Origin: Escherichia coli
GTDB lineage: Bacteria; Pseudomonadota; Gammaproteobacteria; Enterobacterales; Enterobacteriaceae
Reading direction: 5' to 3' (one strand)
NCBI RefSeq assembly: GCF_001677475.2
Contig: NZ_CP015229.1
Length of the DNA: 64,000 nucleotides
Each line of letters begins with the position of its first letter. Position 1 is the stretch's first letter. The notes under the pieces are model-generated. The model made no database searches and was not told the origin of the DNA. It saw only the letters and a list, made by a program, of their open reading frames with translations. Both the position numbers and the translations under genes were made by a program. Of the stretch, positions 3,842-19,096 are shown piece by piece.

Positions 3842-3902
3842 TTTTTCCTCATAAATTTGATGCCAGGTGAGGCTGTGTTTGTTTTGTTCGTTGCCGCTTT
3901 TT

Positions 3903-4089
3903 GCCTGATGCGACGCTGGCGCGTCTTATCAGGCCTACAAGACCCGAGCACAGAACCGTAGGCCGGATAAGGCGTTCACGCCGCATCCGGCATTCAGTGC
4001 CTGATGCGACGCTGACGCGTCTTATCAGGCCTACAGGTCCCGAGCACAGAACCGTAGGACGGATAAGGCGTTTTACGCCGCATCCGGCA
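3903..4089. repeat. REP/BIME cluster (two inverted REP units)
   Basis: Two copies of gcctgatgcgacgctg.cgcgtcttatcaggcctaca ... ccgtaggncggataaggcgtt.acgccgcatccggca between wcaK and wzxC. Confidence 0.8.
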
Positions 4090-4116
4090 ACCATTGCCGG
4101 AACCGAAAACAACAAC

Positions 4117-5595
4117 TCACCCCGCCCGTAAAAACATTTTCATTTTTTCGCTGCGACAAAACTGACGCTTCACTTCCACCACCAGCGGATGGCGCGACAG
4201 CACAATCATCACCACAAACGCCAGCACGCCCGCGGCTATTTGCACCGCCAGCAGCATCCCCAGCGCCAGTTGCCCTTTCAGTACAATGCCCAGTGCATAA
4301 CTGACCACCAGCGTCGGCAGCGAGAGATAAAACGGTAGCCACAAACTCAGGATGTACTGGCGATAACTGGAACCGAGCACCGGTTTAATCATCACGAAAT
4401 AGCTCAGAATGGTGTTGATAATCTGCACCAGCAGGAAACCGAGCGTGACGCCGATTGCGCCCGCCATCTGCCCACCAATGATGATTGCCGGAATAAACAG
4501 AAATGTTTTGAATACGTTGAATTTAAAGCTGATATCCACCCGCGCTTTCGCCATCAGCAGCGAACCAATCGGGTTACCCACTGAGCGCAGTAGCCCCACC
4601 ACACACAGCAATTGCAGCACCGGAATAATGCTGTTCCACTTTTCGCCAAATACCAGCGGTACAAAGTTATTCGACACCACCATTAGCCCCAGCAGCGCCG
4701 GAAAGTTGATAATCCCCACTACCGACAGCAGCTTGTAGAAGTTGACGCGCAGCTTTTCGGTGTCGTCCTGAATTTTGGCAAATGCCGGAAACAACACGCG
4801 GGTGATGATTGGGTTCAGCTTCATCGGCGGCACAACTGCCACGTTGTACGCCAGGTTGTATCCCCCTGCCACGCCCGCGCCGAGAATACGCGCCAGCACC
4901 AGCGTTGAAAGGTTGGTGTTGAGATAGTTGATGATGCTGTCCGCCGTCAGCCAGGCACCAAAGCGTAAGTTCGGTGCCACCGACGCCAGCGAGAAATGCA
5001 GACCGGGGCGATAAATTTTGCGGCCAAAGTAGCCAAACAGCAGCGTTCTTACCGCACTATTGACCAGATAACCGAGGATCGCGGTCATCGCCAGCGGCCA
5101 GAAATGGGCGCTAACCACCGTAAAAGTAAAGCCCGCCAGCACCGCGCTGGTTTCGATCATGCCGATTTTGTTGAACTCCAGCTCTTTTTGCATCAACGCG
5201 CGGAACTGCTGCCCGTGGGGGATCACCACAAACGCCAGTGACAATGTTTTAATCAACGGTGCCAGGTCCGGGTTATTCAGCACGTCGCCGATGAGATCAC
5301 TCAACAAAAACACTGCCACGCACACTACAATCCCCAGCCCGACGTTCAGCCAGTACAGCGTGGTGAGTTCCAGGTGGCTGATTTCTTTTCGCTGAATAAT
5401 CGAGTTAGCGATACCGAAGTCAGAAAGCGTATCTGCCAGCGCGATGATCACCAGCGACACGGTAAGCAAACCGAACTGGTGGTTGTCAATAATCCGCGCC
5501 AGCACGGTCATCTGTACCAGCCCGAGGCCGATGATGATCACCGTAGCAATCGCCGACCACTTCGCGCCGCTGATGGTTTTTTCACGTAAGCTCAT
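4117..5595 (-). CDS. wzxC: Colanic acid repeat-unit flippase WzxC
   Basis: 492-aa polytopic membrane ORF MSLREKTISGAKWSAIATVIIIGLG...; Wzx/MOP-type flippase; synteny. Confidence 0.9.
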   Translation of the reverse strand: MSLREKTISGAKWSAIATVIIIGLGLVQMTVLARIIDNHQFGLLTVSLVIIALADTLSDFGIANSIIQRKEISHLELTTLYWLNVGLGIVVCVAVFLLSDLIGDVLNNPDLAPLIKTLSLAFVVIPHGQQFRALMQKELEFNKIGMIETSAVLAGFTFTVVSAHFWPLAMTAILGYLVNSAVRTLLFGYFGRKIYRPGLHFSLASVAPNLRFGAWLTADSIINYLNTNLSTLVLARILGAGVAGGYNLAYNVAVVPPMKLNPIITRVLFPAFAKIQDDTEKLRVNFYKLLSVVGIINFPALLGLMVVSNNFVPLVFGEKWNSIIPVLQLLCVVGLLRSVGNPIGSLLMAKARVDISFKFNVFKTFLFIPAIIIGGQMAGAIGVTLGFLLVQIINTILSYFVMIKPVLGSSYRQYILSLWLPFYLSLPTLVVSYALGIVLKGQLALGMLLAVQIAAGVLAFVVMIVLSRHPLVVEVKRQFCRSEKMKMFLRAG

Positions 5596-5596
5596 A

Positions 5597-6991
5597 TCAA
5601 TATGCCGCTTTGTTAACGAAACCTTTGAATACCGTCAGGAAAACGATTTTGATATCGAACCAGACGCTCCATTCGCGGATGTACTCAAGGTCGAACTCGA
5701 CGCGTTTTTCCATTTTCTCCAGCGTGTCGGTTTCGCCGCGCCAGCCGTTAATCTGCGCCCAGCCAGTAATGCCCGGTTTCACTTTATGGCGCAGCATGTA
5801 GCCTTCAATGAGCTGTCGATACTGTTCGTTATGCGCCACTGCGTGCGGACGTGGCCCGACAATCGACATCCCACCAGTCAGCACATTGATAAACTGCGGC
5901 AATTCGTCCAGCGAGGTGCGGCGCAGAAAGTTCCCCACTTTGGTAACGCGCGGATCGTTCTGCGTCGCCTGGGTCACCACTTTGTCGTTCTCCATCACTT
6001 TCATGGAACGGAACTTCCACACTTTGATCGGTTTGCCATCCATGCCATAGCGAGTCTGGCGGAAAATAACCGGCCCTGGTGAACTGAGTTTCACCGCCAG
6101 CGCAATACAGCACAGCACCGGGGAGATCAGCAGCAGAATAAGCGTCGCCAGCACAATGTCTTCCGCACGTTTGAGCAGGCGGTTTACCCCGGAAAGCGGC
6201 GTATCGTACAGCGGTACCACCGGTACGCCGTTCATCTCTTCGATACGGGAATGGAGAATGTTGAAGGTAAAGACATCGGGGATCAGCAGCACCGAACAGG
6301 TGGTGTCCGCCAGTTGATGGACCAGTTTTTTCACGCGCGCGCCGTCGCACATTTGCATCGCGATATAGACGTTATGAATCTTGCCCGCTTTCGCATCCTC
6401 GACCAGTTGTTGCAGATTACCCGCCCAGTCGTTAGAAACGCCGCCCGGTTTTGGGTCGTGGTATACGCCCACCACTTCAAACCCTAACCACGGCTGATTA
6501 CGGAAGCTCTCCATCAGCATTTGTCCGGCGGCTAAATCCCCCGCTACGGCGACCATACGCTTGTTATAGCCATGATTACGCAGCCAGCCCGCCCCAATGC
6601 GAATACATGAACGGCAAACCACCAGTCCGATGCTGGTCAGCCCATACCACGCCAGCCAGATTTTCAGTTGCGTGTCGAAATCATTGTTGAACGCCACCAG
6701 ACCGGCGCTGAAAATCACGCTTAAGGTCCAGTTTTGTAGCAACAGGGCAAATTCTGTCGCTGCCCGAACACCGCGCCATGAGCGATAAAAATCGGTGATG
6801 CCGCCCAGCATCTGGAACACCACCAGCGTAATCAGCGCCACCAACAGGTGCATGTAGAGGAATGACAGTCCGCTCACTTCGCAAACCAGCCATAACCCGG
6901 CAAACATGATGGTGATATCTGAAAAGCGTTGCACCATAGAGATTAACGATGCATTGGTTTTCGCTCGCTCGCGCTTTTTTAGATTTGTCAT
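5597..6991 (-). CDS. wcaJ: Undecaprenyl-phosphate glucose-1-phosphate transferase WcaJ (initiating sugar transferase)
   Basis: 464-aa ORF with N-terminal TM helices and C-terminal bacterial sugar transferase domain (...PGITGWAQINGWRGETDT...). Confidence 0.9.
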   Translation of the reverse strand: MTNLKKRERAKTNASLISMVQRFSDITIMFAGLWLVCEVSGLSFLYMHLLVALITLVVFQMLGGITDFYRSWRGVRAATEFALLLQNWTLSVIFSAGLVAFNNDFDTQLKIWLAWYGLTSIGLVVCRSCIRIGAGWLRNHGYNKRMVAVAGDLAAGQMLMESFRNQPWLGFEVVGVYHDPKPGGVSNDWAGNLQQLVEDAKAGKIHNVYIAMQMCDGARVKKLVHQLADTTCSVLLIPDVFTFNILHSRIEEMNGVPVVPLYDTPLSGVNRLLKRAEDIVLATLILLLISPVLCCIALAVKLSSPGPVIFRQTRYGMDGKPIKVWKFRSMKVMENDKVVTQATQNDPRVTKVGNFLRRTSLDELPQFINVLTGGMSIVGPRPHAVAHNEQYRQLIEGYMLRHKVKPGITGWAQINGWRGETDTLEKMEKRVEFDLEYIREWSVWFDIKIVFLTVFKGFVNKAAY

Positions 6992-7011
6992 CGTTGTTCC
7001 TGTTCTATTGT

Positions 7012-7118
7012 CGCCTCGCCCCTCACCCCGGCCCTCTCCCCAAAGGGGCGAGGGGGAGAAGAAAGTTCCGTGCTCACTTCTCTCCGCAGGCAGTAGAGCG
7101 TCAGGGTGAGGGGGAAAG
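7012..7118. repeat. BoxC-like GC-rich palindromic intergenic element
   Basis: cgcccctcaccccggccctctcccc...ggggcgagggggag ... gggtgaggggg; nested inverted repeats between wcaJ start and cpsG stop; resembles the E. coli BoxC repeat (reverse complement gggagagggccggggtgagggg) as I recall it. Confidence 0.45.
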
Positions 7119-7126
7119 TAATGACA

Positions 7127-8497
7127 TTACTCGTTCAGCAACGTCAGCAGAGTTCGCGTTCGCGCTTCCATCAGCGGCACATCACCGCGCGATTCCACAT
7201 TCAGGCGCACCACCGGTTCGGTGTTGGAGGAGCGCAGGTTAAAGCGCCAGTCGGCAAAGGTCATGCTGATGCCATCGGTGCGATCCACCGCCAGCGCCTC
7301 ACGGCTAAAATGCTGTTCCACGCGGTTAATCGCCTCAACGGGATGCGCCAGTTTGCTGTTGATCTCACCGCTTGCCGGAAACGCCGCCATCCGGTCGCGT
7401 ACCAGTTCGCCCAGCGTTTTCTCTTTCAGGCACACCAGTTCGGCGACCAGCAGCCACGGGATCATGCCGCTGTCGCAGTAAGCGAAATCACGGAAGTAAT
7501 GGTGGGCGCTCATTTCGCCACCGTAGATGGCGTCTTCCTTGCGCATCCGTTCTTTAATAAAGGCGTGTCCGGTTTTCGACATCACCGGAGTGCCGCCCGC
7601 GGCAGTCACCACATCAACGGTGTTCCAGGAGAGACGTGGATCGTGGATGATCTTCGCGCCGGGATTTTTTTCGAGGAACGCTTCTGCCAGTAGGCCGACA
7701 ATGTAGTAGCCCTCAATAAACTGCCCTTTTTCGTCAAACAGGAAACAGCGGTCAAAATCGCCATCAAAGGCAATGCCCATATCCGCGCCGTGTTTGATGA
7801 CCGCATTGCGGGTGTCATCGCGGCATTCCGGCAGCAGCGGGTTAGGAATACCGTTGGGGAAATTGCCGTCCGGCGTGTTGTGCACTTTGATCAATTCCAC
7901 CGGTGCGCCGAGGGCGTTAAAGCGGGCTTCGATAGCGTCCACCACCGGCCCCGCTGCGCCGTTCCCGGAGTTGATTACCAGCTTGAGCGGCGTGAGGTTT
8001 TTGACGTTGATATAACCGAACAGGTGATCAACGTAAGCGTCACGCAGATTGATTTGCTGATAGCGACCGCGTTTTGTTTCATCAACGGGAGGAAAGTCGT
8101 TGGCTTCTGCCAGACGCTGGACGTCGCGCAGTCCGGTATCACCGCTGATCGGGCGGGCCCCTTCGCGCACCAGCTTCATGCCGTTGTAATCCATCGGGTT
8201 ATGGCTGGCGGTAACTTCGATGCCGCCATCCACGCCGAGATGGAACGTGGCGAAATAGATCTCTTCGGTGCCGGACATGCCAATATCCAGCACATCGACG
8301 CCCGCATCCTGTAAACCTTTCGCCAGCGCCAGTTTTAAGGTTTCGCTGGTGAGGCGGACATCACCGCCTAACACAATGGTTTTCGGTTTGAGAAATTCGC
8401 CATAGGCACGCCCAATACGCCAGGCAATATCTTCATTCAGTTCTTCGCCTAATTTCCCGCGAATATCGTAGGCTTTAAAGCAGGTTAATTTTTTCAT
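7127..8497 (-). CDS. cpsG: Phosphomannomutase CpsG (ManB)
   Basis: ORF 7127..8545; start trimmed to [19 protein letters not shown]... (456 aa); phosphohexomutase active-site motif TASHNP present. Confidence 0.9.
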
Positions 8498-8587
8498 GTC
8501 GTTACCCTTTTTCAGGCAATAGTTGGCCCTGACCGAAGCGGCCAATTTTGTTTTTGTCGTTATTTACATCGCGGTTCGGCATTCATT

Positions 8588-8689
<102 letters not shown>

Positions 8690-8699
<10 letters not shown>

Positions 8700-10126
8700 C
8701 CGTAGCGATCCGCGAAGCGCACCACATCATCCTCTTCGAGATAAGAGCCGGAGCGCACTTCAATTAAATCGAGCGGAATTTTCCCCGGGTTTTCCAGGCA
8801 GTGCTTCGCCCCCAGCGGAATATAAATGGACTCGTTTTCACCAAGCAGTTTGATATCACCGTCAATAGTGACTTTTGCCGTTCCCGCGACAACCACCCAG
8901 TGTTCCGCCCGGTGATGGTGCATCTGTACCGACAAGCCTTCGCCCGGTTTCACGGTGATGCGTTTCACCTGGTAGCGGTCGCCCGCGTCGATAGAGTCAT
9001 ATTTGCCCCACGGGCGATAGACTTCGCGATGTACCCGATGCTCATGGCGACCATCGGCTTTGATCTGCTCGACCACTTTTTTCACATCCTGCACCGCATT
9101 GCGGTCGGCAATCAGCACCGCATCTTTGGTCTGCACTACCACCAAATCTTTCACCCCGACGGTGGTGACCAGGCCAGATTCGGCATACACATAGCTGTTT
9201 TCAGTTTTGTGATTAATCACATCGCCATGGCAAACGTTGCCCTCGGCGGTGTGGGCGCTGATCTCCCATAAAGAGGACCAGGAGCCGACATCGCTCCAGC
9301 CCGCATCCATCGGCACCACAACAGCATCTGCCGTGCGTTCCATAACTGCGTAATCCACCGACTCTTCCGGGCAGGCCAGAAACGCTTCTTCATCCACACG
9401 AATAAAATCGAGATCCGGATCGACGGCGCTCATCGCTTTTTCACAGGCGTTGAGGATGTCCGGGCGATATTTTTTCAGTTCTTCGAGATAGCGTCCGGCG
9501 CGGAACAGGAACATGCCGCTGTTCCAGTAATATTCGCCGCTTGCCACATAGGCCTGGGCGGTTTCCAGATTCGGTTTTTCGACAAACTGCGCCACTTCAA
9601 AGGCCACCGTATCCTGCTCACCCGCCGACACTTCACCGCGACGAATATAGCCATAACCGGTTTCTGGTAGATCCGGCACAATGCCGAAGGTCACCAGCTT
9701 ACCTGCTTCGGCATATGGCATGGCATTACGCACGGCGGCACGGAACGCGTCTTCATCGGCAATCACATGATCCGCCGCCAATACCAGCATTAACGGGTCG
9801 CTCTCCGGGCTATGACGTTTTGCCGCCAGCGCCGCCAGTGCAATGGCAGGTGCAGTGTTACGCCCTGCCGGTTCGAGAATAATGTTCTCGGTGAGTTTGT
9901 TCAGTTGACGCAGCTGTTCCGCGACAATAAAGCGGTGCTGCTCATTACAAATCACCACCGGGCTTTCGCACTCCACGCCGTTCAGGCGACAGATGGTGGT
10001 TTGCAGCATGGTGAGATCGCCTTTCAGGCATAAAAACTGCTTGGGGTAAAGTACGCGGGAAAGCGGCCATAAGCGGCTCCCGGAGCCACCTGCCATCACA
10101 ACTGGATAGAGTTTCGACTGCGCCAT
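8690..10126 (-). CDS. cpsB: Mannose-1-phosphate guanylyltransferase CpsB (ManC)
   Basis: 478-aa [27 protein letters not shown]... with C-terminal cupin/mannose-6-P isomerase-like domain. Confidence 0.9.
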
Positions 10127-19004: not shown

Positions 19005-19035
19005 AGGTTGTTCTCCCGACTTATGAGCTGGTTTG

Positions 19036-19078
19036 CTTGCCGGATGCGGCGTGAACGCCTTATCCGGCCTACGGGGCG
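19036..19078. repeat. REP element
   Basis: gcttgccggatgcggcgtgaacgccttatccggcctacgggg between wzc stop and wcaA start. Confidence 0.75.
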
Positions 19079-19096
19079 GTGCGAATGCAGGTGTCG

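Follow-up and report, generated by a model that had tools for sequence, protein, structure and literature searches.

The GC-rich palindrome that separates cpsG from wcaJ in the colanic-acid operon is almost certainly a copy of the BoxC/PIT/TMECO repeat. In the window, which is the whole 64,000-nucleotide stretch of DNA analysed here, the feature is probably a head-to-head BoxC pair, composed of one intact and one decayed unit, that occupies the usual stem-loop site 3' of the cpsG stop codon. The palindrome is a member of an already-known repeat family and an ordinary copy of it.

Identity of the cpsG-wcaJ palindrome

Gene names were taken from the RefSeq annotation of homologous E. coli regions. 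The coordinates of the open reading frames bear out the predicted length of 135 bp for the cpsG-wcaJ gap (Table 1). The accompanying description of the operon as otherwise tightly packed needs qualification, as three further gaps of 92-275 bp are present (3842-4116, 8498-8689 and 19005-19096) and all contain REP units. Four units are found in wcaK-wzxC, three in cpsG-cpsB and one in wcaA-wzc, which together are all of the wca-operon gaps longer than 30 bp other than cpsG-wcaJ. REP-linked indels in these other gaps were noted previously (PMC3158064). The cpsG-cpsB gap of strain D7 contains 88 bp extra, and a further REP/BIME cluster of three units is located near 61.3 kb of the window (61291-61393). 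Small plus-strand ORFs over the cpsG-wcaJ gap (6906-7109 and 6949-7242) were dismissed as antisense artefacts of the GC-rich repeat.

Table 1. Genes and sequence features at and around the cpsG-wcaJ gap, in window coordinates
Feature	Position	Strand	Basis
wzxC	4117-5595	minus	ORF coordinates
wcaJ	5597-6991	minus	ORF coordinates
cpsG-wcaJ intercistronic gap, 135 bp (long allele)	6992-7126	minus	ORF coordinates; RefSeq annotation of identical gaps in O26:H11 and other strains
wcaJ Shine-Dalgarno (AGGAA)	6997-7001	minus	5 nt 5' of ATG; outside all predicted stems
Extra G-block (AGGGGCGAGG on mRNA), 3' of BoxC unit	7014-7023	minus	inverted repeat, 10/10
Intact BoxC/PIT/TMECO unit, type B, one mismatched triplet	7019-7054	minus	published pattern; K-12 no. 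3
Spacer, 22 nt, the conserved 5' flank of the type-B unit	7055-7076	minus	mRNA reads TGAGCACGGAACTTTCTTCTCC
Decayed second BoxC unit, inverted, head-to-head (probable)	7077-7114	plus	column-for-column alignment with intact inverted units
Outer stem 5' arm on mRNA, CCCCCUCACCC	7103-7115	minus	pairs with 7019-7029; MFE and centroid folds
cpsG	7127-8497	minus	ORF coordinates
cpsB	8690-10126	minus	ORF coordinates

The palindrome had been described as BoxC-like, and one half of it is an exact BoxC/PIT/TMECO unit, both by match to the published pattern and by comparison with K-12 copy no. 3. TMECO is the element formerly called BoxC and then PIT, and its pattern is a 33-37 nt sequence of the form 5'-CCCTCNCCC N3-6 GGGNGAGGG N3 GGGNGAGGG-3' (Holder et al. 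2015, PMC4666352). The family is the subject of a series of earlier studies (Bergler 1992; Bachellier et al.; Hoyne and Maher 2000, 2002; Holder et al. 2015, PMC4666352). A regular expression for the pattern, which recovered all expected copies in six K-12 loci, had a single minus-strand match in the 64-kb window (7020-7054). The intact unit is arranged as CCCTCGCCCC-TTT-GGGGAGAGGG-CCG-GGGTGAGGGG. Read from 7054 to 7019, the minus strand is CCCTCGCCCCTTTGGGGAGAGGGCCGGGGTGAGGGG, which is identical at 36 of 36 positions to TMECO no. 3 of K-12, a type-B element with one mismatched triplet (Table 1 of PMC4666352). The cpsG-wcaJ unit is likewise of type B, with CCG as the second loop and one mismatched triplet. 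Hundreds of E. coli genomes, O26:H11 strain 11368 among them, have a 135-bp gap that is 100% identical to this one. Since the O26:H11 orthologue appears as TMECO no. 391 (NC_013361 2875141-2875106; Supplementary Table S8 of PMC4666352), at coordinates that were checked, the cpsG-wcaJ copy is already catalogued.

E. coli K-12 contains 23 TMECO copies, every one of them intergenic, and an independent survey gave BoxC a length of 56 bp and 32 copies. The original prediction proposed a search for other genomic copies, and these exist. Each E. coli genome contains, at the median, 12 sites matched by the 135-bp query, and nearly all of the 55,258 sites are chromosomal, with 22 on plasmids. With BoxC dispersed in this manner across E. 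coli genomes, the refuting condition set for the palindrome, an absence of other copies, fails. The copy shares with the BoxC/PIT/TMECO family its intergenic and chromosomal location, its multi-copy nature, strain polymorphism with a collapsed stem-loop allele and, probably, pairing with an inverted unit. It differs from the typical TMECO in lying inside a long operon, rather than between transcription units.

The nested inverted repeats quoted for the gap were recovered with a repeat finder. CCCCTCACCCC (7019-7029) lies opposite GGGTGAGGGGG (7104-7114), and the extended outer arms (7019-7037 and 7095-7113) are 19 nt long and 84% complementary, with a core of CCCCTCACCCC and GGGTGAGGGG. The inner repeat consists of CCCTCTCCCC (7032-7041) together with GGGGAGA (7053-7059), in which 7035-7041 and 7053-7059 are complementary at 7/7 positions. 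Two further pairings are available, one between GGGGAGAAG (7053-7061) and CTTCTCTCC (7077-7085), with 8/9 paired, and an alternative and perfect one between CCTCGCCCCT (7014-7023, the extra G-block on the mRNA) and AGGGGCGAGG (7044-7053, the C-block on the mRNA), with 10/10 paired.

The second half of the palindrome, arranged as CTTCTCTCC-GCAGGCAGT-AGAGCG-TCA-GGGTGAGGGGG, aligns with the inverted units found in the same gap of Kluyvera, Enterobacter, Lelliottia and Buttiauxella, and also with the head-to-head pairs of the K-12 lldD-trmL and yagA-yagE loci. Its outer block (GGGTGAGGGG) is intact, and its inner C-block and G-block are mutated. The putative partner aligns with inverted units elsewhere as well, although it is too decayed for a pattern match or for A/B typing (its loop is TCA), and only one TMECO is recognizable in the gap as a consequence of this decay. 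Inverted pairing of a type-A with a type-B unit is frequent in the family. The C-rich ends of the two units face each other, as in K-12 pair 17+18 and unlike the tail-to-tail K-12 pairs 7+8, 10+11 and 12+13. A flank of the form GCAC(C)G...CTTTTC, which in the window is the spacer between the units, also lies 5' of the type-B unit elsewhere in K-12, as well as in other genera. When ten head-to-head pairs are folded to a consensus, a 10-bp outer stem encloses two hairpins. No covariation was detected in this fold of ten pairs, which reflects sequence conservation only, so the structure of the pair is without independent support.

Length variation and DNA-level readings of the gap

The cpsG-wcaJ gap is dimorphic in E. 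coli. The long 135-bp allele is present in 509 of 5,426 complete E. coli genomes (~9%), and most of the others have a 54-55-bp gap; in an even sample, the corresponding span of 353-355 bp was found in 50 of 60 records. The K-12 gap is 54 bp and contains a single hairpin, CCCUUACCC-CACUGC-GGGUAAGGG; the hairpin of the short allele is 9-10 bp. The two alleles differ over the entire gap, and their arms differ by one compensatory pair, U-A vs C-G. No duplicated flank was found at the junction of the long and short alleles in a search for a target-site duplication. The dimorphism is clean and natural, and could be used to test the effect of BoxC on segmental mRNA stability or on local genome instability.

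The length of the gap ranges from 39 to 357 nt across species. It has grown to 247 nt in Enterobacteriaceae bacterium RIT714 (L034:2254-2500) and to 357 nt in the metagenome-assembled genome (MAG) UBA5654 (L059:2144-2500), in both cases through partial BoxC units and spacers that have multiplied in tandem. The E. coli E69 long allele (L010:2374-2500) lacks, at the unit's 3' end, 8 nt (GGGGCGAG) that lie between short direct repeats, a case of slippage at the cpsG-wcaJ locus, and also has a 1-nt deletion in the spacer. Holder et al. (PMC4666352) described TMECO loci as more rearranged than control sites, and inverted TMECO pairs as recurrently collapsing to a plain stem-loop, which they termed the 'palindrome effect'. 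The cpsG-wcaJ site behaves like these loci, with length polymorphism, pair collapse, slippage and tandem multiplication.

Within Escherichia, the short hairpin may represent the older state, as suggested by the single hairpin in the 53-56-nt gaps of the outgroups E. whittamii, Salmonella enterica subsp. arizonae and Citrobacter, a polarity that is drawn from few outgroups and from a scan in which many Escherichia species, E. albertii, E. fergusonii, E. marmotae and E. ruysiae among them, and Salmonella enterica subsp. enterica are absent. The long allele would then have arisen by replacement with BoxC or by elaboration of the hairpin, with gene conversion by a copy elsewhere, or slippage at the C- and G-blocks, as likely routes. 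Simple transposition is an unlikely origin, because no target duplication was seen. The feature resembles miniature inverted-repeat transposable elements (MITEs), such as ERIC/IRU and YPAL, in being a composite of about 100 bp with terminal inverted repeats (CCCCTCACCC...GGGTGAGGGG). A MITE was nonetheless rejected, as there is neither a target-site duplication at the long/short junction nor an empty site; the short allele does not qualify as one, since a related hairpin is already present there. We know of no transposase associated with BoxC. Compared with the short hairpin, the additional BoxC sequence in the long allele is probably neutral, and at the DNA level it may make the site prone to deletion and length change.

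The proposal that the palindrome marks the boundary of a mobile cassette finds no support. GC content is flat across the cpsG-wcaJ gap, with no compositional boundary, divergence from K-12 and from O26 alike is similar on both sides, and a target-site duplication is lacking. A broader DNA-level role, as a triplex- or cruciform-prone hotspot of recombination or instability, or as the edge of an exchangeable block beside the O-antigen region, is improbable on the same observations. It would fit the range of gap lengths, the tandem multiplications and the E69 deletion described above, but the variability is limited to the gap itself. It would also fit the behavior of the family in vitro, where TMECO oligonucleotides form intrastrand triplexes; the G-rich strand of an identical type-B sequence with one mismatched triplet adopts an intrastrand purine-motif triplex by CD and NMR, but the triplex was undetected by in vivo footprinting (Holder et al., PMC4666352).

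None of the 5,426 complete E. coli genomes is more than 97.3-97.5% identical to the window (regions 30000-54000 and 5000-9000), which indicates an Escherichia lineage not represented among them; E. coli E69 reaches 96.4% and E. whittamii 94.4%. Despite the divergence of the window, its 135-bp gap is 100% identical to the O26:H11 allele. A recombination tract was considered, given this identity to the O26 allele against ~3% divergence of the flanks, and was rejected as not significant. The mismatch-free tract of 281 bp around the gap is unexceptional, since 3 of 45 equal-sized bins elsewhere also had 0 mismatches.

The cpsG-wcaJ hairpin across Enterobacteriaceae

A scan of species-representative genomes with WcaJ gave 80 loci, and the cpsG-wcaJ gap was extracted from 74 of them. 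In ~70 enterobacterial species the gap always contains a GC-rich hairpin or a BoxC single or pair. Gaps of 46-58 nt with one GC-rich hairpin of 8-12 bp are found in E. whittamii, Salmonella enterica subsp. arizonae, Citrobacter, Leclercia, Kosakonia, Silvania, and some Enterobacter and Lelliottia. Gaps of 81-357 nt with BoxC singles or head-to-head pairs are found in Enterobacter, Kluyvera, Buttiauxella, Lelliottia, Superficieibacter, Pluralibacter, Phytobacter, Pseudenterobacter and Huaxiibacter. Short and long states coexist within single genera. In short gaps, 6-11 nt separate the stop codon from the hairpin and 15-20 nt separate the hairpin from the wcaJ ATG, and 25 of 34 such gaps fold with z < -2 (median -2.7). 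Salmonella, reported to be without TMECO, keeps the cpsG-wcaJ hairpin. One locus (L084), on a contig labelled 'Chryseobacterium sp. 18061', carries a wcaJ of enterobacterial type (82% amino-acid identity), and its flanks are typically enterobacterial as well; this assembly is probably contaminated or mislabelled.

The stem is maintained by compensatory changes. In 13 unambiguously aligned sequences from Escherichia, Salmonella and Citrobacter, 97.6% of the cells in the hairpin alignment are paired, compared to 47-66% in a control in which the partner was slid by 1-3 columns. Two pairs in these sequences show a double compensatory switch (C-G to or from U-A, and G-C to or from A-U), and the covariation score of the alignment was reached by 0 of 500 shuffles. 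RNAalifold applied to 30 short gaps returned 5 pairs, each with compensatory changes. Of the 74 gaps, 52 have the more stable predicted fold on the sense strand and 19 on the antisense strand, a bias that is a weak pointer to a role at the RNA level, since the lineages are not independent. Literature searches for the cpsG-wcaJ stem-loop and for processing of wca mRNA yielded no description of either. That compensatory evolution has kept the hairpin across genera is a hint that the 20-gene colanic-acid operon may have a small post-transcriptional feature that is so far undescribed.

In the window, the mRNA strand of the gap is predicted to fold at -59.0 kcal/mol, compared to -45.4 +/- 3.6 kcal/mol for dinucleotide shuffles (z = -3.76), and one of 200 shuffles folded as well as the gap. 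The opposite strand folds at -56.6 kcal/mol (z = -2.31). Both the MFE and the centroid structure of the mRNA strand consist of two inner hairpins enclosed by an outer stem, with the wcaJ ribosome-binding site unpaired. The wcaJ start region, ACAGGAACAACG-ATG, is kept in most genera. No Rfam family reached its gathering threshold in a scan of 6500-7700 with permissive E-values; the best scores were 12.7-15.7 bits compared to gathering scores of 37-40, with E-values of at least 1.1, and belonged to families that are all eukaryotic or archaeal.

Possible roles of the stem-loop

An RNase-processing or stability element, one of the functions originally proposed for the gap, is plausible. Such a role draws indirect support from the conservation of a hairpin, with compensatory changes, at precisely this place in different genera. 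On cps mRNA the BoxC pair would fold as a three-way junction, the outer stem of which (CCCUCACCC/GGGUGAGGG) would be the counterpart of the short-allele stem (CCCUUACCC/GGGUAAGGG). RNA polymerase would pass the stem-loop unaffected. Once the mRNA is cut in the AU-rich stretch 5' of the wcaJ ribosome-binding site, the stem-loop would bar 3' to 5' exonucleases passively, and the wza...cpsG segment would then outlive the wcaJ-wzxC-wcaKLM segment, as with REP stabilizers in other operons. Such a passive barrier to mRNA decay is offered tentatively as the most economical mechanism for the stem-loop, if it acts at all.

The analogy is with REP/BIME elements, which are intercistronic mRNA stabilizers, the paradigm being malE-malF. 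REP stabilizers of this kind are reportedly described in the work of Newbury and colleagues from 1987 and of Khemici and Carpousis from 2004. Like the malE-malF stabilizers, the cpsG-wcaJ feature is a stable GC-rich stem-loop located just 3' of the upstream cistron, is without a U-tract and belongs to a dispersed repeat. It differs in sequence. The REP core GCC(G/T)GATGCG(A/G)CG, which forms part of an imperfect palindrome of ~35 nt, has 14 matches in the window, including the gaps at 3903-4088 and 8588-8688, so that neighboring operon gaps hold true REPs, whereas the REP consensus (GCCKGATGCGRCG) has 0 matches in 6992-7126. To our knowledge, a stabilizer function of BoxC has never been shown.

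It is also possible, although somewhat unlikely, that the palindrome is purely selfish or neutral and plays no part in the operon. Palindromes of the BoxC type would gather in a few permissive gaps, and the hairpin found elsewhere would be a remnant of decay or collapse. A remnant of a palindromic repeat looks like a hairpin, whether it is used or not, and the short hairpins of Lelliottia and Leclercia (CCCTCTCCC...GGGAGAGGG) are exact BoxC inner hairpins. All other operon gaps longer than 30 bp also hold palindromic repeats, in the form of REP, and TMECO loci are unusually variable, with inverted pairs that collapse to stem-loops. Published work reports no role of these elements in gene expression and no positional bias relative to genes, and no functional association was found in K-12. 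A neutral remnant is harder to reconcile with compensatory double changes that keep the stem in Escherichia, Salmonella and Citrobacter, despite arms that have drifted from BoxC. It also does not account for the hairpin in Salmonella or for distances to the stop codon and ribosome-binding site that are alike in all genera. A conserved stem-loop is favored over a selfish palindrome, with moderate confidence, because the stem is maintained by compensation, its position is constant and it persists in a genus reported to be TMECO-free.

A stronger form of the conserved stem-loop reading is speculative and rather unlikely. In this form, the colanic-acid operon would possess, in this stem-loop, a genuine cis-acting RNA element conserved throughout Enterobacteriaceae, and BoxC units would seed preferentially at pre-existing hairpins with C-blocks and G-blocks, by templated conversion or slippage and not by random transposition. 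If true, hairpin seeding would explain the independent occurrence of BoxC singles and pairs in one gap in at least eight genera, and would provide a first handle on the spread of a 30-year-old orphan repeat family. The BoxC pair at the K-12 ygfF-gcvP locus (L090:482-646, compared with L007) is uninformative with regard to homing to hairpins. O157:H7 and ~2,400 other genomes lack both ygfF and the pair, and in O157:H7 bglA is followed by a REP-like palindrome that adjoins gcvP. Since the pair-less alleles are without ygfF altogether, there is no simple empty site.

The suggestion that the palindrome acts as a partial terminator is not borne out by the sequence that follows the structure. Like a Rho-independent terminator, the feature is a GC-rich hairpin, and a very stable structure of this kind within an operon could be taken for a partial intrinsic terminator or attenuator that reduces transcription of wcaJ and later genes. 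However, on the mRNA the structure is followed by CGAGGCGACAAUAGAACAGG, without a U-run, and the sequence after it reads CGAGGCGACAAUAGAACAGGAACAACG-AUG. A U-tract is also absent from the short alleles in all genera, and a terminator scan reported no BoxC stem on either strand. Transcription of the colanic-acid (wca/cps) operon proceeds under RfaH antitermination, which also argues against an attenuator at this site. Its position inside an operon likewise sets the feature apart from Rho-independent terminators. As far as the work of Hoyne and Maher is summarized in PMC4666352, PIT elements have no promoter or terminator activity. Partial termination or attenuation is highly improbable on these grounds, and it is very unlikely that the cpsG-wcaJ palindrome is a terminator. 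No promoter was found in a scan of 6700-7400. A weak terminator-like hairpin over the cpsG stop codon (7122-7146, minus strand), with 10 pairs of which 3 are G-C, followed by UUACUUUCCC, is probably a chance match. A catalogued BoxC copy, from a family without a demonstrated function, should not be annotated as a terminator or as a cassette boundary.

Least probable of all is an RNA G-quadruplex or structural switch that controls the translation of wcaJ. The unit's G-rich part (GGGGAGAGGGCCGGGGUGAGGGG) has the four G-tracts of a canonical quadruplex motif and stops 27 nt upstream of the start codon of wcaJ, and such a part could in principle form a three-tetrad quadruplex, but NMR of the DNA oligonucleotide revealed a triplex and not a quadruplex (Holder et al., PMC4666352). 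The adjoining C-blocks give very stable Watson-Crick hairpins, the ribosome-binding site lies outside the BoxC element, and four G-tracts are absent from the site in ~90% of E. coli genomes and in most genera, all of which argue against a quadruplex.

Another conserved sequence lies upstream of cpsG. The last ~50 nt of the cpsB-cpsG gap before the cpsG start (8498-8548, minus strand) are strongly conserved in nearly all of the genera recovered, at the same position (loci L012-L089), and are far more conserved than the cpsG-wcaJ hairpin. We know of no annotation for this stretch, which reads ...GGCC-n-GGTCAGGGC(C/T)(A/G)ACTGTTGCCTGAA(A/G)AAGGG... and may serve as a leader or translation element.
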